Assembly (NCBI RefSeq): GCF_001677475.2
Contig: NZ_CP012497.1
Strand: one strand, 5' to 3'
Source of the DNA: Escherichia coli
GTDB taxonomy: Bacteria > Pseudomonadota > Gammaproteobacteria > Enterobacterales > Enterobacteriaceae
Length of the DNA stretch: 64,000 nt
This document shows, piece after piece, positions 1 to 53,406 of the stretch (position 1 is the stretch's first letter; each line of letters begins with the position of its first letter). The notes under the pieces are model-generated. The model was not told where the DNA came from. It saw only the letters and a program-made list of their open reading frames with translations, and made no database searches. The position numbers and the translations under genes were made by a program.

Positions 1-1
1 T

Positions 2-1549
<1,548 letters not shown>

Positions 1550-2593: not shown

Positions 2594-3962
2594 TAATAAT
2601 CCTCTTGCCAGTCAGCACCGGCATAGTTATCAAACCGTGAGTATTGGCCGTTAAAAGCCAATCTCACCGTGCCAATTGGGCCATTTCGTTGCTTACCGAT
2701 AATTACCTCGGCAATGCCCTTCATTTCGCTATCCGGGTGATAAACTTCGTCACGATACAGAAACATGATCAGGTCTGCGTCCTGCTCAATTGCTCCTGAT
2801 TCACGTAAATCTGAATTTACCGGTCGTTTGTCCGCACGCTGTTCAAGCGATCGATTAAGTTGTGACAATGCCACCACCGGTACTTGTAATTCCTTCGCCA
2901 AAGCCTTCAGTGAGCGAGAAATCTCGGCAATTTCCAGCGTTCGGTTATCTTGCAGCTCGGGGACGCGCATAAGTTGCAGGTAGTCGATCATAATCATGCT
3001 CAAACCACCATTTTCTTTATAAACACGACGAGCGCGGGAACGAAGCTCTGTAGGTGTCAGGGCGCTTGAGTCATCAATAAAAATATTCTGCTTGTCCAAC
3101 AGAATCCCCATTGCGCCAGAAACCCGCGCCCAATCCTCGTCGTTAAGTTGCCCTGTTCGAATACGAGTCTGATCAACGCGTGCAAGAGAAGCCAGTGAGC
3201 GCATCATCAGCTGGTGGCTCGGCATCTCAAGGCTAAAAACCAATACGGGCTTATCGTTACGGACTGCGGCATTTTCGACGAGATTCATCGCAAACGTAGT
3301 CTTCCCCATCGATGGGCGGGCGGCGACAATAATGAGATCGGACGCCTGAAGTCCTGCCGTCTTCTTATTGAGATCGGTAAATCCGGTATCAAGCCCGTTA
3401 CACCATCATGCGGTCGCTGAAACAACTCTTCTATGCGAGATACCGTTGCATCGAGAATGCTGGCGATATCTTTTGGACCACTACCGCTCTTTTGTCGTTT
3501 TTCAGCTATTTCAAAAACGCGGCGCTCGGCCATATCCAGCAATTCATTGCTGCCCCTGCCATCCTGCGCATATCCAGCTTCAGCTATTTCATTTGCGACG
3601 GAAATCATTTCACGAACAACCGCGCGTTCACGAACGATATCCGCATAAGCACAAATATTTGCCGCGCTGGGCGTGTTCTTTGACATCTCCGCAAGGTACG
3701 CAAAACCACCGGCGCGTTCTAATTTACCGTTCTGTTCAAGTGCTTCAGCAAGTGTTATCAAATCAATCGGTTTGCCATGACTTAATAACCTCTCCATCTC
3801 ACTGAAAATTTCACGATGAGCACTGGTATAAAAATCATCAGCAACTATACGATCTGCAACTTCATCCCAGCGGCAGTTATCAAGCATTAAGCCACCAAGT
3901 ACAGCTTGTTCTGCACTAAGGGAATTTGGCATGGATTCAAGAGGGGATGCAGACATTAGCAC
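2593..3962 (-). CDS. ban: DnaB-family replicative helicase (P1 Ban-like), frame broken by a 1-nt indel
   Basis: N-terminal ORF 3285-3962 matches the DnaB N-domain up to HDGVTG; C-terminal ORF 2593-3309 starts MGKTTFAMNLVENAA (Walker A) with full RecA-like core; an alternate frame reads DTGFTDLNKKTAGLQASDLIIVAARPS bridging them; break at about 3388-3392. Confidence 0.85.
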
Positions 3963-6799: not shown

Positions 6800-9700
6800 C
6801 TACACCTCGAGTGTCCCCTTACAAGACACAGAACGTCTGGCAAAAAGAGGTTCCACTCTGAAGCCACTGTCATGATAAAGCTCTCTGATGTTTGGCGCGC
6901 CACTGTTAGTAATGAGAACCTTTGCACCTCGACGATGAGCATCCGTCAACAGAGACACCAGGCGTTTTTGCTCTTCAAACTTAAAGTCATGACCGGAATA
7001 GTTCGTGAATCCCTCTGTATTTGGAAGCGGTTCATACGGCGGATCGCAAAAGATGACATCTCCTTCTCCGGCAGCTTCAATCACCGCTGCAAAATCACCG
7101 CATACAAACTCAGACCGCCCTTCCGCACCGAGGAAGGCTTCCATCTCCTGTAATGGGAAATACGGAGTTTTATACTTCCCGTAACCGACATTGAACTCAC
7201 CGGCCTGGTTGTAACGCGTCAATCCGTTAAAACAATGTCGGTTCAGGAACAAAAACGCCGCTGCGCGATGTAAATCATCATAGACTTGTTTGTTAAACGC
7301 ATTCCGTACTGCCAGGTATCCTTCCTGTGTGTTGTAGTCCTGGAAGAAACGATGTGCCAGAGTGATAAGTGAATGCGCCTCGCGTTGCAGAGTCTTGTAA
7401 AAGTTAATCAGGTCAGCATTCACATCATTTAGCAGATTTTCCTGGTATCCGGCATTCATGAAGACAGCTCCGCCACCAACGAAAGGTTCAATCAGGCGCT
7501 TCCCTTCTGGCAAATAGCGAAAGATTTGTTCCAGAACACCAAATTTTCCACCAGCCCATTTGAATATGGACCGTTCGAATTCTGCCGCTGGTTTAACTTT
7601 TCGCTCTTTTGTTTCACTTCCTTCTTTCTGCCGACATACGGCCTTAGTAATCCGATCGCCAATCCAGCGCATTACTGGTATTGCCATACTATTGCCGATC
7701 GCTTTGTAACGCGGTCCGTCAGCTGCAAGCATCGCGGCCTCTTCTTCGCTTAAATCTGGATAGTGATTGCGAAGATATGCCAGTTCATCTGAATTAACTT
7801 TTTTACGCTTTTCCGTCGGGATCAACGTATGCCCATCAGGAAAACCTTGCAGCCTTTCACATTCGACAGGGGTAAGACGGCGGACAGCTACTTCTGCGTT
7901 TCTTACTTCATAGCAAACAGCTGTTGGATTTTTAGCCATTAGAGATGGTGAAGTATTCTTAGTTGCAGCATGTTGTGTACCGCTCATACGCTCAGGAAAA
8001 GCCAATGTAACAAGATGCTCATGGCTTTCTTGCTCACGTGCCCGCAATGTACCATGCCCTTCTGACCAAAAACCTGCTCCTGTGCTGCTAAAAACGGCAA
8101 GGTCAGTGGCATCTTTAAAATCTCTTGCCTTTACTGTCGATGCGGTTTCATCGTCAATATATTCCCCAAATGCCGCCATCCTGAAAGCGTTTACGGCTTT
8201 CGTCGATTTCATACCGGGTGGCATGTCAGCGTGTAGGCATGGATTTAGGCTTTCGCCACTGATTGCAGCGCCATTTGCAATAATGGCGGAAGCGATTTCC
8301 TTCTTTTTTCGGCTCGGCGCAATATTCCGGCGCACGCCTTCGAACTCAAAAAGTACCGTTGCGGGATCGAGGTCTGTTCGAGCACTTGCGACAACAAACA
8401 CGCGTCGGCGTCGTTGTGCCACTCCGAAGTATTGGGCATCAAGGATTCTCCAGGCCACCTTTCGCTGCGGTCCATAAATACAACCACACTGCGGCCACTT
8501 TGGAGCATGGCAACCGGTTTTGCCATCCCACCGCCAGAACGCGTTACTTTTTCCTGATTCAGGTCGATCACCTGGTTCAAATGGCGCATCTTCTCCAGCC
8601 AATCCGGCAAGGAAACATCCGAAGGCGTTATCTGCCGATGACAGGACTCCTGGGACATTTTCCCAGACGATAACTGTCGGTTTGAGGAAGGACTCAGACC
8701 GTTTGTCGTCAATTGCATTTGCAAGCTCCACATACTTCAAAGTTAGCGCGCCGCGTTCATCATCAAGCCCACCACGTAAGCCCGCGATACTGAATGCCTG
8801 ACAGTTATGGACCACCGCACCATTGAGGATATAGGAATGATCACCTTCGACTTCTATGTTGTATACAGTATCTAGGCCTACCGATTTAAACTCTTTGACT
8901 GTTCGTAAAAGCATTCCATGAGCCAATCTTGATTTACGTGACAATTTCTGCGGGCAGATTGTTACCTGATAATAATTCCGTTGATTTACCACGCGATCCT
9001 CGATCACTTTTTTGGGCTCAACTTCAATAAAGCTGACCGAAGAAACATAACCACAAGTCTGTGACAACCCCGCAACGCCCCAAGCAAGCGCAGGACTAAC
9101 ACTATTAATTCTAAATCCCGCTTTACCACTTGGTGTCCCATCAGTATCAAGATAGCCTTGTAAAAACACATGACGCAATGGATGCGACATCACCCATGCA
9201 GGGATACGCTTAGCATGGCTTAACTCGCCAAAATGTTCATTAAGCCAATTGGCATAACACGTATCATTCAAGGTTACTTTGATGCTCCCTCGGATTTCGC
9301 TTGCCACGGAAAATATGTTTTCTGGTATGCGGCAATGAAACTTTCTCAATTTCTGGCAATTTATGCCAAAAACAACCGCCTTCTTAGATTTACCTCTCCA
9401 TCTCCTAATATATCCATCGCCAACATAAGCGCCCGCAAGATACATAGCCTGTTCTTCAGACAAGAACCGAGAACAAATATCTGGAGATGCAATATTGAAA
9501 TTAGTTAGAGCGCACCATTGATATCCCGGCATATCACATGCTGCTCGCCATTCCGGTTCAGACAACAACTCTCTCTTAAAATATGTGCCATTTTTCCGGG
9601 TGTTTTGGGCTTTCCACCGAACAGCCAGGAAGGGATGGTCATTGGTTGTTCTTATACCTAAAGGCTGCCCAACGGCATTAAGTAACCCCGTATTAGCTAT

Positions 9701-10056
9701 TTTTGAACCAACTCTTTTTACTTGTTGTAACCGCCCGAGATGACTGACTACGTAATCGCCAGGGCAAACATCTTCTATTGGTTTATAACCATTTTTACAA
9801 AGAACCATATGCCCCGCGGTAAAACATGGTGTTCCCCGACGAGCACGTCAGGGGATTCGATTTCCCCAGCCAAGACTTTTTTGGCAAGTTTTGTCATGTC
9901 GCCAAGGTTGGCGACATGGGGCCAGCGGAGCGCAAGAACGGCAGATGGAAAAGGCTCGATTTCAGCAAACCACGCCGGACGCATACCCAACGGTTCCCAG
10001 GCAATACTCGCGGCTTCAATTCCACTGCAAACAGATCCATAGCACAGCTCTTTCAC
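6800..10056 (-). CDS. dmt: bifunctional DNA methyltransferase (C5-cytosine domain plus Dam-like N6-adenine domain), intein-containing, frame broken near 9834-9837
   Basis: C5-MTase motifs [40 protein letters not shown]; Dam motifs FVGGGAV and DPPY at the C-terminus; GTG start overlaps the hrdC stop; the N-terminal 77 codons are in a different frame, joined across a C-run. Confidence 0.85.
8804..9826 (-). mobile_element. intein with LAGLIDADG homing-endonuclease domain, inserted at the catalytic Cys of the C5-MTase
   Basis: 341-aa insertion starting CFTAGHMVL and ending ILNGAVVHN followed by Cys+1 of CQAFSIAG; LAGLIDADG-like motifs [13 protein letters not shown] and [11 protein letters not shown]. 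Confidence 0.75.
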
Positions 10057-10961: not shown

Positions 10962-11306
10962 GTAACCCTTGAATATCAACCACAGAAAGCTCGTCTTTGT
11001 AGAAAAAGGCCAAGTTGTGGCACCCCCTCGTTTGAGCGTATGAGCTGGGACCAATTTCGTTCTTCCAGACAAATGGCTTCAAATCCGTACGGCGAAGCAT
11101 AAAAACGCGATTTGTTCCGCTCTGATTCCCAATGAGGCAAAAGCCTTCTTTCACCTTGATAGCCTGCAAGTTGTCGAGTTCACCGCTGGTTACACGGCTA
11201 TCGAACTCCTTGCGGCTTATTAGCTCCATCTGCATCTGACGACTCCAAACAAATGCCCATTGAAGGGCGATGGCTGAATGGTACCGAAAATACTACATAA
11301 AAAACA

Positions 11307-11323
11307 ATATTCATTAGAGCAAT
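11307..11323. promoter_or_regulatory. C1 operator-like site upstream of hrdC-dmt
   Basis: Reverse complement ATTGCTCTAATGAATAT, partial match to the C1 consensus, in an AT-rich intergenic region. Confidence 0.4.
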
Positions 11324-11403
11324 TATGCAATAGTGAACGCTATGTAGACCACAAGTAACATAGGTTAAAATAACGAAAACCAGAGCAAATAATTGGTGAT
11401 TAC

Positions 11404-11688
11404 GTGGCAAGTATTGCAACAAAAGACAGCATTTGTTCGGGGCACGGAGGATTCCCATCCAGGCCTCCTGTAGAGAGTGAACCACTACTTAAAGTCAACG
11501 GAGTCGAAGTGTTAGTTGATGGTAAGCAATATGCACAGCATACCGATGGAAACAGTACGCACGGTGGGCAAGCTATATCAACCAGGGCATGGTTTACCGT
11601 CAATGGTAAAGGGATCGTATGCGTTGGTGACCCTGTTTCATGCGGCTCTACCGTAGCGTCAGGTGACGGCCTGGTTCAGGTAAGTTAG
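11404..11688 (+). CDS. PAAR-like small protein
   Basis: GTG start; Gly/Cys pattern KVNGVEVLVDGK and TVNGKGIVCVGDPVSCGSTVASGDGLVQV resembles PAAR repeats. Confidence 0.45.
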   Translation: MASIATKDSICSGHGGFPSRPPVESEPLLKVNGVEVLVDGKQYAQHTDGNSTHGGQAISTRAWFTVNGKGIVCVGDPVSCGSTVASGDGLVQVS

Positions 11689-11696
11689 GAGATATC

Positions 11697-12484
11697 ATGC
11701 TGGAAAAAGACTACCAATTATCCGCATATAAAAAATTGGCCGCAGCCGGTGGGATGAAAACACCAGGTGCCATAACATCGGCACGAAGCAGTGCTAACAC
11801 GGCAAAACAGCTTGCAGAAGAATTGACCGGATTAATTTTGGATACAATTGTCTATCCTGACACTATTACCAGCTATGTTTCAACGATCAGAACAACCACA
11901 ACCGGCTTAACGAACATTGGAGAACTGGCAACTAAGCACGCGGACCTGTTGGCTGGTTATGCAGATCTGTCAATGCTGCTTCAACTCGATATTGGTTGGG
12001 ATGTTTACTGCCGTGCTAATGAGCGAGAAGTTTCAGAACTGCCAATCTCTATTGCCATTGGTGATGTGACTATTACTAAATCGCTTGAGGACGCTGTAAA
12101 CGCGCTTAATACATCAAGTTTAGTCGCTGCTATGGGGAGATTAACCAGACCCTTAACACTGGCTCTGAAAGCTCGTCAGGCACTGGTTCAGGCGGCGGCA
12201 CTGCCATTCCCCCACCAGCACTAACAGAAAAGCAAATTGAAGCTCTGAAAGTAGCAACTGAACAGTTTGGGGGAGTTTTCAACCAAACAACAGCGCCCAC
12301 TGTTGCATTGCAACAGCAGTATGAACGGGCGAAGGAAAGCGCCAGCATAGCCATAACTGCTTATGGCCATGCTATTGGTACCGCGCTTGCGGAAGCATCA
12401 GCAAATAAGACCAGCACAGCCAGCGCAGTCGCCGCTTTGGTTCCTGATTCTGTTCTTGATGAATTAAACAAAGCGGCACAGTAA
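11697..12484 (+). CDS. hypothetical protein, frame broken at a G-run
   Basis: 175-aa ORF 11697-12224 continues in another frame to 12484 (GSGGGTAIPPPALTEKQIEALKVATEQ) if the G4 run at 12134-12137 is G5. Confidence 0.4.
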
Positions 12485-12523
12485 CAAAGGACTTCATTGA
12501 TAATTTTTCTTCAGGAGGAAGAC

Positions 12524-12946
12524 ATGTCATTCTTTTCTACGTTAAAAACAGCTTTGTCTTTGAAGGAGAAACTTGCTGCTACTGGTGTTCTTGTTCTGAT
12601 TTGCGCACTTGTTGGTGCTGGGTTTGCATGGGAACGTCATCAGCTAAAGCAAGCCATGGAGAAAATTGGCAGTCTTGATCAGGCTGTTAAGGAACGTGAT
12701 AAGTCAATAATGGATCTTAACCAGACCATTGAGACGATGAACAAAGCAGAGCAACATTTTCACAGCCAGGAAGTGAAAAATGAATCAGAACAAGCCAAAT
12801 ATGCTGACAGGCAAATGGAACGAAAAGCTGAAGTTCAGAAACAACTGGTTGCGGCGGGTAATGTTCGCCAGCGCATTCCTGCTGACACTCAGCGGTTGCT
12901 CCGGGAGTCGATCAGCGAATTTAACGCCGACGCCGACAAAGGTTAA
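12524..12946 (+). CDS. Rz-like inner-membrane spanin candidate
   Basis: Start MSFFSTLK; N-terminal TM segment (ATGVLVLICALVGAGFAW) followed by a charged coiled-coil region. Confidence 0.45.
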   Translation: MSFFSTLKTALSLKEKLAATGVLVLICALVGAGFAWERHQLKQAMEKIGSLDQAVKERDKSIMDLNQTIETMNKAEQHFHSQEVKNESEQAKYADRQMERKAEVQKQLVAAGNVRQRIPADTQRLLRESISEFNADADKG

Positions 12947-13112
12947 CCACCCTGCCCCCAAAAGTGCATTTATGTGCAGAATGCCAGAGTTTAGCAGTGA
13001 ATATTTTGATGATCTGCCAGCGTATATCCTCGATACAGAAACGATGCTGATGGGGATTAACAGGAAGAATCGCAACGTTAATGATTACAACCGCGCTATC
13101 AGCGGTAACTAA
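12861..13112 (+). CDS. Rz1-like outer-membrane lipoprotein candidate
   Basis: Out-of-frame ORF overlapping the 3' part of the Rz-like gene; lipobox MFASAFLLTLSGCSG; could instead be a P1 Mlp-type lipoprotein. Confidence 0.4.
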   Translation: MFASAFLLTLSGCSGSRSANLTPTPTKVNHPAPKSAFMCRMPEFSSEYFDDLPAYILDTETMLMGINRKNRNVNDYNRAISGN

Positions 13113-13123
13113 AAGGGATTTTT

Positions 13124-13516
13124 ATGTCTGATAAAGTAACAGTAAAGCAAACTATCAACAAAGCGACTTCAATCTACAAAATTGAGCACATCACTGTTGG
13201 CAAGCCAGGATCTGAACAATACCGTCATGCTTTCGAGCTTGCCGATCAGCTTGGTTTAAAACACCCGGATTGCATCGAGCATGTATTTCCGACCTATGCT
13301 GATGAGCAATGTACTCATGTTCTTACCGAAGAGGATTTTTTCAGCACTGAAGAACGAGAAGGCGTTGATCGTTGCATTGGTGTGATTTGCTCTTCAGTGA
13401 GTTATGAGTTATTCCCTAATGTCCATGAAAATGGTGGTATTGGATACCAATTCCTGTACGAAGGCGATGAGCTTAAATGTTATGAACATGGTCTTCTTAT
13501 CGAAAGCGTAGAATAA
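13124..13516 (+). CDS. hypothetical protein
   Basis: 130-aa ORF with a strong context, last gene before oriR. Confidence 0.4.
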   Translation: MSDKVTVKQTINKATSIYKIEHITVGKPGSEQYRHAFELADQLGLKHPDCIEHVFPTYADEQCTHVLTEEDFFSTEEREGVDRCIGVICSSVSYELFPNVHENGGIGYQFLYEGDELKCYEHGLLIESVE

Positions 13517-13549
13517 TACCCTTCCTTCCAACCGGCTATGTTGGCCGGT

Positions 13550-13780
13550 TTTTCACTTATCCACATTATCCACTGGGTAGATCCAATAATTAGGTCCATA
13601 CAGATCCCAATTAGATCCATATAGATCCCTGATCGTTGCAGGCCGCGTCACGTCTGGCTTAGAAGTGTATCGCGATGTGTGCTGGAGGGAAAACGATGTG
13701 TGCTGGAGGGATAAAAATGTGTGCTGACGGGTTGCTAATGTGTGCTGGCGGGATATAGGATGTGTGCTGACGGGAAAGCC
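13550..13780. promoter_or_regulatory. plasmid replication origin oriR (DnaA boxes, GATC cluster, incC iterons)
   Basis: Tandem TTATCCACA/TTATCCACT DnaA boxes at 13557-13576, GATC sites at 13611-13634, then 5 direct 19-bp iterons upstream of repA. Confidence 0.75.
13674..13778 (+). repeat. incC iterons (5 direct repeats, RepA binding sites)
   Basis: Five copies of ATGTGTGCTGGAGGGAAA-like 19-mers at about 21-bp spacing. Confidence 0.85.
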
Positions 13781-30415: not shown

Positions 30416-30772
<357 letters not shown>

Positions 30773-49547: not shown

Positions 49548-50276
49548 TTACTCACTGTCAAAACGGGCCTGTTTTGTCGCCAGCTGGCGCGCCAGCTCCT
49601 GCTCACGGTTTATACCGGGATTGTAGTTCCAGCCCGGATCAATCCCTTCCGGCACCTCTTCCTCTTCGCCCGTACGTTTGTTCACCCAGCGGACAGTCCT
49701 GATTTCCGGCGCTTCGGTGTGAATGGTGCCCTGTGCCGCCAGTTGCGCATACTCACCACGGCTGACCTGACGGATGGTGCATTTGCAGCCCCAGCCGTTA
49801 GGGGCGAAATGCGTCTGCCAGAACGGGTGGTCTACAGGCAGACACAGACGCGCCCATTTCACATGCTCCGCCCGGTGCTCGCGGGATGGCCCCAGCTCAT
49901 AAATCAGATACGGCATGGCCCGCTTTGTCCGCTGAATGCGTTCCCACTGGCCCGCCGCGCGGGCGGTGCGCATGTTGGTGTCAAAAATCGTGCGGAGGCG
50001 GCGGTCGCTGCCCAGTTGCACGGTGCGCCTTTCGCCCGTCAGCGGATCATCCATCTCCTGTACGCCCCACCATCCGCGTTTTATCAGCAGCGGTTGCAGC
50101 ATCTCCCGGAACTCGCTGAACGTCTGCCCGCTTTGCAGGGCGTCTTCCACAAGGGATTTCACATCCGACAACAAATCCAGTTGCAGCATTTTTGCCACGG
50201 TGAAGCTGTTCCGGTGTTCTTCCCGCCACACATCCCGGTAATCAAAACCGGGCGCAGCTTCTTCGCCTTCAGCCAC
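49548..50276 (-). CDS. head morphogenesis protein (Mu F-like)
   Basis: 242-aa ORF directly downstream of the portal gene. Confidence 0.65.
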   Translation of the reverse strand: MAEGEEAAPGFDYRDVWREEHRNSFTVAKMLQLDLLSDVKSLVEDALQSGQTFSEFREMLQPLLIKRGWWGVQEMDDPLTGERRTVQLGSDRRLRTIFDTNMRTARAAGQWERIQRTKRAMPYLIYELGPSREHRAEHVKWARLCLPVDHPFWQTHFAPNGWGCKCTIRQVSRGEYAQLAAQGTIHTEAPEIRTVRWVNKRTGEEEEVPEGIDPGWNYNPGINREQELARQLATKQARFDSE

Positions 50277-51875: not shown

Positions 51876-53406
51876 AGTAAACCTCCCTCATTTTTCAGGC
51901 CGCGCGTCAGCTTCAGCTGGCGGCGCGCGTTGCGTTCTTCCGGTTTCGCCGGGCGGTTCAGACGGTGCAGTTCGTAACGGTGGCAGTCATCTTTACTGGC
52001 AAGGAAGCCCAGGAAAATGGCCACAGCGGCGTCGCCGTGACGTTTGTGACCGTCGCTGCCTCTGGTTCGTGAATCATCAATGCCGGGAACGCCACGCAGT
52101 AACTGAATGGCCCGAGGTCATTGATCACGTCTTCATGCTTCGGAAGGATCAGCTCATCATCTTCAAACGCCGCACGGAAACGGGGCATGTTTTCACGGTA
52201 AAACGCCACGGACAGCATCACCTGTTCCACCTCGTCGCCGTACCGCTCCGCCGCCTGTTCTGCCAGATACTGACCATTCCCCCGCGCATCCATTTTGATG
52301 CCGTCACGACGGGGCAGACGATCGCAAAGCCAGAACAGTACCTGCTCCTGCTGTTTAAACGGCACATTGGCAAGCTCAACCAGGAACGGCACCTCGCGGG
52401 TGGTGTCGTCGTTCACCGTCACCGGGGCCAGCACAGTCAGGTCACCCGAACGCGCAAAGTCTTCCCCCAGACAGTGGCGCAGGTTCTGTGGGAGTTTTTC
52501 CAGTTCAGGGCGCACCACCGTTTCCAGCCATTCCCGGATATCTGCCCGGCGCTGGCTTTCCGTCAGTGCGTTAAATTCCGGTGTGCCGGTAAAGCGCAAC
52601 ACTTTTCCGGTGCCACGGGCTGCACGTTCACGCATTGAGCGGGGGATATACGTGCCGCCGCCGTTTTTCGGGACGCAGTAATATTCCTCCAGGGCGTCTT
52701 CGCGGGTGGCGGTATTTCGCAGCAGGCCTTCTTTCCATTCCGCCTCGGCCTCCGGTGACCACTCCATGCCGCGTACCTGACAGATACGCCGGTACAGCCC
52801 GTCACTGCAGGCGTCATCCAGCGTGATGGTGTGAATACGGTAATCTTTTTTGCCTGCGCGGCTCTCCTGAATCAGCTGGTTAAACGGGTTGTCCACGCCG
52901 TCATGGGTGGAGATAAGGCGAACCTTACCGCCCCACGTGGTCAGTGGTGTGACCGCCTTGAGTACCTCATCCAGTTTTTCATGAAACGCCGCTTCGTCGA
53001 TGGTGACATTCCCCTGCATCCCGCGAATGTTGCCCGGATTGCTGGACAGCGCCTTGACCTTAAAACCGCTGGCGAAGTACACGACGAACGTCAGAATGTC
53101 CATGTCTTCGTCGGTGATCACTTCCTCGCGGATTTCTTCCGCTGCCGCATTAAACGCTTTCGCCCACATCGCTACGGCGTCGATAAATTCGCGGGCCATC
53201 TCCTTATTCGAACCGATATAAAAGTGATCGCGCCCGCCGTTTTCCTTCTTCAGTGATGCGGTCAGTGCTGCATCTGCCGCTTCCGCCCAGGTTAACCCGG
53301 TACGGCGTGATTTCTCGGCGATTTTCAGTTTTGAATCATCCGCCACCCAGCGTTTCTGATACGGCAGCAGAACATCGGATTCACTGAACGTGTTCATCTG
53401 TGTCAT
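51872..53406 (-). CDS. terminase large subunit (Mu gp28-like), frame broken near 52111-52113
   Basis: ATPase N-domain; the ORF-track C-terminus is out of frame, and the corrected frame gives ..GVPGIDDSRTRGSDGHKRHGDAAVAIF.. ending at a stop that overlaps the portal start. Confidence 0.8.

Follow-up and report, generated by a model that had tools for sequence, protein, structure and literature searches.

Organization of the P1-like region around upfC and upfB

The window examined in this study, by which we mean the whole stretch of 64,000 nucleotides that was analysed, was identified by alignment to P1 genomes as a P1-like phage-plasmid, and the locus of interest comprises two neighbouring genes on its plus strand. 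The first of them, upfC (11404..11688), has a GTG start and a TAG stop, is preceded by the Shine-Dalgarno sequence GGTGA 5 nt upstream of the start codon, and encodes a 94-aa PAAR-type P1 tail spike-tip protein according to profile and PDB sequence matches. The second, upfB, follows after a gap of 8 nt, with a Shine-Dalgarno sequence that overlaps the upfC stop codon, and is divided into two parts on the plus strand. The 5' part, as translated (11697..12224), yields 175 aa consisting of 147 native and 28 out-of-frame residues up to the TAA at 12222-12224, and the 3' part (12138..12484) is out of frame, fully open, and encodes a Gly/Ser/Pro linker together with a predicted long C-terminal helix. 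Between them lies the frameshift site (12134..12137, plus strand), where alignment with two P1 genomes revealed a 1-bp deletion that leaves G4 at a position where relatives have G5.

The interval from 11200 to 12700 displays 93-96% identity to P1-family phages and phage-plasmids, and approximately 600 plasmids in PLSDB, hosted mainly by E. coli, match it with a top identity of 96.6%. In the annotated P1 genome, dmt, hrdC and uhr are found on one strand and upfC, upfB, ppfA/mlp and upfA on the other, followed by oriR and repA; the comparison of gene order with P1 that the earlier note had suggested showed that this arrangement (dmt-hrdC-uhr / upfC-upfB-ppfA/mlp-upfA) is reproduced in the window. 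Upstream of upfC are uhr and hrdC on the minus strand, and downstream of upfB is the ppfA/mlp spanin pair. Of these two plus-strand genes, ppfA (12524..12946; PHROG 89, E 1.5e-25) encodes an Rz-like inner-membrane spanin and mlp (12780..13112; PHROG 30284, E 2e-77) an Rz1-like outer-membrane lipoprotein spanin, both in agreement with the P1 annotation. The start of mlp at 12780 lies within ppfA in a different frame, and its translation contains the lipobox LSGC. From their sequences, the pair supplies the two components of an Rz/Rz1-type spanin, namely an inner-membrane component and an embedded lipoprotein component. The last gene of this same-strand cluster is upfA (13124..13516, plus strand; P1 annotation and profile search), and the string upfC-upfB-ppfA/mlp-upfA ends, ahead of oriR, at a terminator-like hairpin followed by a T run (13530..13550, plus strand), a feature found by consensus scan only.

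Genes 5 and 6 of P1, for the spike and the hub, occupy window positions 1-1549, about 10 kb from upfC, and gene 5, which encodes the trimeric beta-helical spike that UpfC caps (917..1549, plus strand; sequence matches; PMC12810830), is intact. The earlier note had placed the PAAR gene beside hrdC and the lysis-like genes and away from the tail and baseplate cluster; the neighbours are as it described, but the large cluster at about 34-47 kb belongs to an unrelated Mu-like prophage and not to P1. P1 homology stops at window 30723, within pmgC, of which only the 5' part (30440..30723, plus strand) precedes the cut at 30723/30724 made by the right end of this prophage. The Mu-like prophage (30724-64000) begins with the Mom/Com genes, continues with tail fibre, baseplate, sheath, tape measure, head, portal and terminase genes, and also carries Mor, Gam and part of the transposase region; the window ends before its left end.

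The 94-aa PAAR-type protein UpfC

The open reading frame at 11404-11688 and both of the motifs quoted for it in the earlier note were recovered in our analysis, with GTG as the start codon. Its assignment to the PAAR proteins is borne out by several searches. PHROG 281 ('PAAR motif') matched UpfC with E 2e-30, and the NCBIfam profile T6SS_PAAR_dom (NF033420) aligned along the full protein with E 4.5e-9, scoring 36 bits against an equivalog cut-off of 124. The HMM search proposed beforehand returned Pfam PAAR_motif (PF05488) with E 8.5e-6 and 26.4 bits, slightly short of the gathering score of 27. Against P1 UpfC of known structure (PDB 9vyi_A), 93 of the 94 residues are identical (E 1.7e-60), and the exact UpfC sequence of the window is present on 141 contigs.

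When solved structures were searched with phmmer, UpfC also matched the T4-like spike tip 9f4b_BA (E 4.8e-10), T4 gp5.4 (5iv5/4ku0; E about 1e-7) and the type VI secretion protein VCA0105 (4jiv_D; E 3.7e-4). In the alignments, residues H14, H46, H53 and C80 of UpfC are identical in T4 gp5.4 and the 9f4b chain. Conserved His and Cys residues near the apex of the PAAR cone were reportedly described as metal ligands by Shneider and colleagues in 2013. These sequence relationships show that UpfC is homologous to the PAAR cones of solved structure, and the product of 11404-11688 is identified by them as UpfC, the already-known PAAR-type tip of the P1 tail spike. The earlier note had considered that a missing PAAR match together with absence from virions would speak against its proposal; PAAR matches were obtained, and a position in the virion is given by the published P1 cryo-EM.

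With reference to the literature, the P1 GenBank entry already notes a similarity to T4 ORF 5.4. Gonzales et al. 2022 reported an HHpred match to gp5.4 and found that a upfC deletion mutant still forms plaques (PMC9024508), gp5.4/UpfC has been described as the only BLAST-detectable tail protein pair of T4 and P1 in a T4 work that also reports a gp5.4 phenotype on truncated LPS (PMC12407873), and CRISPRi indicated that upfC and upfB are both non-essential (PMC10695390). Cryo-EM work of 2025-26 placed a UpfC monomer on the tip of the trimeric gp5 spike (PMC12810830; bioRxiv 10.1101/2025.07.21.665459), and UpfB was described as a 'tripod' of three trimers at the spike tip by fitting an AlphaFold3 model into medium-resolution density (PMC12810830). 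Both assignments, UpfC to the PAAR tip and UpfB to the tripod attached to it, are therefore already in the literature, with structures.

It was also observed that upfC, with its GTG start, is often skipped by automatic gene callers, for instance at the clonal loci L008-L011, and an 86-aa antisense ORF is called instead. Older records that do include upfC label it 'alanine racemase', a misannotation that has been propagated.

The upfB frameshift and its plasmid lineage

The gene directly downstream of the PAAR gene is upfB, as it is in P1. P1 genomes carry upfB as one uninterrupted reading frame, of 262 codons if counted from the start with the strong Shine-Dalgarno sequence and of 281 codons as annotated in the reference; as it stands in the window, the gene lacks the continuous ORF of about 260 aa that characterizes the P1 UpfB tripod protein. 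The earlier note had called this gene frame-broken, and indeed the ORF at 11697-12224 continues in another frame; the break is real and shared by other assemblies. Past the break, the frame stays open for 116 codons to the stop at 12482-12484 and encodes GSGGGTAIPPPALTEKQIEALK, the Gly-rich linker that had been quoted from the sequence. As for the place of the break, the attribution to a G run held true, as the G5/G4 run at 12134-12137 is affected, but it is not the Gly-codon repeat: the window reads ATGGGGAG against ATGGGGGAG in OP279344, with one missing G, and this G4 run lies about 50 nt upstream of GGCGGCGGC, which encodes the Gly linker.

Restoring one G gives a 262-aa protein with 94% identity to OP279344 UpfB and 90% to reference P1 UpfB, which matches PHROG 1559 along its whole length (E 1.6e-133). 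In an alignment of 21 UpfB homologues, the N-terminal domain and the C-terminal part are conserved, and the Gly/Ser/Thr/Pro linker between them is variable. In the AlphaFold2 model of UpfB (pLDDT 82.7), which is all-helical, residues 156-177 form a disordered linker and residues 178-237 a long helix, and the lesion falls inside predicted helix 140-155, the last of the N-terminal domain. Searches with UpfB, for which no structure has been solved, returned only a weak Pfam match to DUF7432 (E 0.023, below the cut-off), no match in NCBIfam, and only matches to the low-complexity linker among PDB sequences; comparison of the model with the PDB by Foldseek found generic helical bundles only, none with E <= 0.001.

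A homopolymer lesion in this window has to be regarded with suspicion from the outset, because the window carries five private deletions of the same kind, and the upfB lesion is rescued only by the agreement of other assemblies. Compared with two relatives, the 1-bp homopolymer differences of the window are all contractions; over roughly 34 kb compared, five private 1-bp contractions of G/C runs were counted, with zero substitutions against the best-matching relative of each segment. Relative to the clonal relatives, they comprise C5 to C4 at 299-303, which breaks gene 6 (baseplate hub), C4 to C3 at 3394-3397, which splits ban (DnaB-type helicase) into two ORFs, C5 to C4 at 9834-9838 in dmt, which is intact in the relatives (1085/1095 aa), G4 to G3 at 50253 in a Mu-like F-like head gene, and C4 to C3 at 52111-52114 in the Mu-like large terminase gene; all five genes are broken by them. 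An exact-sequence look-up found the broken terminase product on record nowhere else. The five private deletions are probably due to homopolymer under-calling in the source assembly of the window. As these five sites look like assembly errors, other calls of broken genes in this record need to be checked against clonal relatives.

Some observations on dmt were made along the way. This gene (window 6800-10056, minus strand) encodes a bifunctional P1 methyltransferase with an intein and a LAGLIDADG domain (Pfam LAGLIDADG_3, 31 bits); its relatives match Hint_2 and measure 1013-1095 aa, compared with 754 aa in reference P1, which is intein-free. The intein appears to lie in the C5-methylase half, at its conserved Pro-Cys motif or close by, with the downstream junction ...VVHN|CQAFS, and its upstream junction is obscured by the private frameshift of the window. 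At window 6815, near the 3' end of dmt, loci L008 and L010 (1085-aa Dmt) have C4 and locus L009 (1095 aa) has C5; this difference can be taken as a real variant in the C-terminal length of Dmt, since it is polymorphic among clonal relatives.

Complete E. coli genomes gave 510 matches to a 68-nt probe around 12134, and every one of these 510 records has one more base at the site, none being G4. The exact 175-aa product of the broken gene is nevertheless recorded from GCA_002516285.1, GCA_018683295.1, and Logan SRR25942434 and SRR3929499 (two NCBI drafts and two Logan assemblies), and the SRR25942434 contig was seen in 12 samples, so that the G4 allele has carriers in at least four other assemblies besides the window. 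The clonal loci L008-L011 show 99.98-99.99% identity to window 1699-22224, with 0-1 mismatches and no gap at 12134. Because the exact broken product and G4 recur in near-identical independent assemblies, the G4 in upfB is a real inherited mutation of a clonal plasmid lineage. Lineage members differ by only 0-1 mismatches across up to 20.5 kb, and the downstream frame is still open; both point to a recent event.

The same lineage is marked by the disruption of pmgC. The 110-aa PmgC read-through product across the junction recurred in five other assemblies, whose DNA is 99.97-100% identical, meaning that at least five other assemblies share the pmgC::Mu-like junction, and two samples carry both this junction and the upfB G4. 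The contigs of the lineage were reached through Dbn, as gp5 is too widespread to serve as an anchor. The pmgC gene is essential for P1 and encodes the head-tail adaptor (PMC12810830). Since this essential gene is split by the Mu-like prophage, the lineage can very probably no longer assemble P1 virions and would persist through its plasmid functions.

Interpretation of the lesion and comparison with known systems

The explanation that we favour, at a probability of roughly 85% for the whole of it, is that upfB has only recently become a pseudogene, under no selection, in a P1-derived plasmid that is defective as a phage. On this account, one PAAR-type cone of UpfC caps the blunt end of the trimeric gp5 beta-helix, which gives the P1 tail spike a sharp point, and upfB, coupled to upfC, encodes the all-helical protein that published cryo-EM sets at the spike tip as the tripod of three trimers. 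The upfB of this lineage has lost one G from G5, with translation ending after 147 native and 28 aberrant residues, so that the linker and C-terminal helix of UpfB are no longer made. The truncated UpfB, with its N-terminal helical domain nearly complete, is presumably non-functional. With pmgC split, the P1-derived element would survive in its plasmid form only; in such a setting upfB is a dispensable virion gene, and a frameshift in it is therefore expected to be neutral.

The behaviour of upfB in other P1-like elements was also considered. UpfB homologues, down to 43% identity, were found only in Enterobacteriaceae contigs that measure about 90-135 kb and have a P1-like set of genes. In the most distant group (L036), a 94-aa PAAR gene is located 3 nt upstream of the upfB homologue, near the major capsid gene; its product is 68% identical to UpfC and matches Pfam PAAR_motif at 28.2 bits, above the threshold. 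The order of PAAR gene then upfB is thus held at 43% UpfB and 68% UpfC identity, in keeping with the physical association that has been published for the two proteins. Other disrupted upfB alleles occur among homologues from P1-like plasmids (P0018, P0019, P0023, P0029 and P0034). They include a second frameshift, represented by 96 cluster members, in which a 1-nt deletion in the linker-coding CCACCAG leads to the same TAA and 175 aa; in two further alleles the reading frame passes into unrelated sequence, after residue 140 in one case and in the linker, at about residue 171, in the other.

From these sequences, upfB seems to have been lost repeatedly in P1-like elements, and the disrupted alleles are consistent with its dispensability. 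They could also be read as a sign that upfB loss is recurrent and non-random in plasmid-resident P1-like elements, or else the G run might give leaky or switchable expression of the tripod; we regard this as very improbable. If non-random loss were true, the tripod on the PAAR tip would have a cost or a host-range role under selection.

It is very improbable that full-length UpfB is still produced, either by ribosomal -1 slippage at AUG GGG AGA with re-pairing of Gly-tRNA on the G run, or by a phase-variable switch of that run. A -1 slip on G-GGG would regenerate the wild-type ...AAMGEINQ exactly, and the upfB frame downstream is open for 116 codons. AGA is a rare codon in E. coli, and here it is awaited directly after G-GGG. 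However, AUGGGGAGA contains no canonical X XXY YYZ heptamer, the downstream 88 nt fold like shuffled sequence (z = -0.12), and a run of 4-5 nt is short for a slipped-strand mechanism. An open downstream frame is equally expected from a very recent mutation, with 0-1 substitutions in the lineage. Moreover, the two-frame layout occurs in 0 of the 510 complete-genome records, all of which have upfB in one frame, and hence there is no sign of an evolved recoding site. With no heptamer, no downstream structure and a split layout that is not conserved, programmed -1 frameshifting and phase variation were rejected.

We give just as little credence to the view that the truncated UpfB, essentially its helical N-terminal domain, is a functional variant under selection, for instance for binding to the PAAR tip or for a role in the plasmid state. 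It retains 147 of about 155 residues of the N-terminal domain, and other P1-like plasmids repeatedly show truncations close to the linker; yet the cut falls within predicted helix 140-155 and adds 28 foreign residues, and in the AlphaFold2 model (pTM 0.77) the C-terminal helix is apparently no separate domain. The lineage has furthermore lost pmgC, hence offers no virion context, and recurrent disruption fits neutrality, upfB being dispensable.

The least probable reading, that the upfB break is a homopolymer under-call of sequencing or assembly in the source record and the gene is really intact, was the one first favoured, given the contraction-only homopolymer differences of the window (five other private G/C-run contractions against clonal relatives, with a broken terminase product unrecorded elsewhere) and the absence of G4 from all 510 complete-genome records, and it was overturned by the independent G4 assemblies, at least four of which have the exact broken product, and by the clonal relatives, which restore the other five sites yet keep G4 in upfB.

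The upfB frameshift is a genuine but ordinary pseudogenising mutation. Its biological weight is little, as the UpfC tip and the UpfB tripod are published and both are dispensable for laboratory plaque formation. Its value is one of curation, with one homopolymer frameshift that is genuine (upfB) and at least five others in the window that are probably assembly errors, and the record adds a naturally occurring upfB-null allele, carried by a P1-derived plasmid lineage that a Mu-like prophage has disabled.

Comparatively, the UpfC of the window agrees with P1 UpfC (PDB 9VYI chain A; P1_gp066) in length, start and position between uhr and upfB, and differs from the reference P1 protein by a single substitution, S86 here against A86 in P1. 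T4 gp5.4 (PDB 5IV5, 4KU0) resembles UpfC as a single domain of about 95 aa, with a phmmer match that spans residues 7-90; each caps a trimeric gp5 beta-helix, and neither is needed for plaque formation, although the two are only about 30% identical. P1 gp5 is without the lysozyme domain that T4 gp5 has, and no UpfB-like tripod has been reported at the T4 tip. The T6SS PAAR-repeat proteins, such as VCA0105 of Vibrio cholerae (PDB 4JIV), belong to the same cone family as UpfC, which in contrast caps a phage spike rather than VgrG and is without an effector extension. With one G restored, the UpfB of the window is 90-94% identical to P1 UpfB (P1_gp065; PHROG 1559) over 262 aa and shares with it the layout of N-terminal domain, linker and C-terminal helix as well as the place after upfC; unlike P1 UpfB, the gene in the window is frameshifted at codon 147/148.
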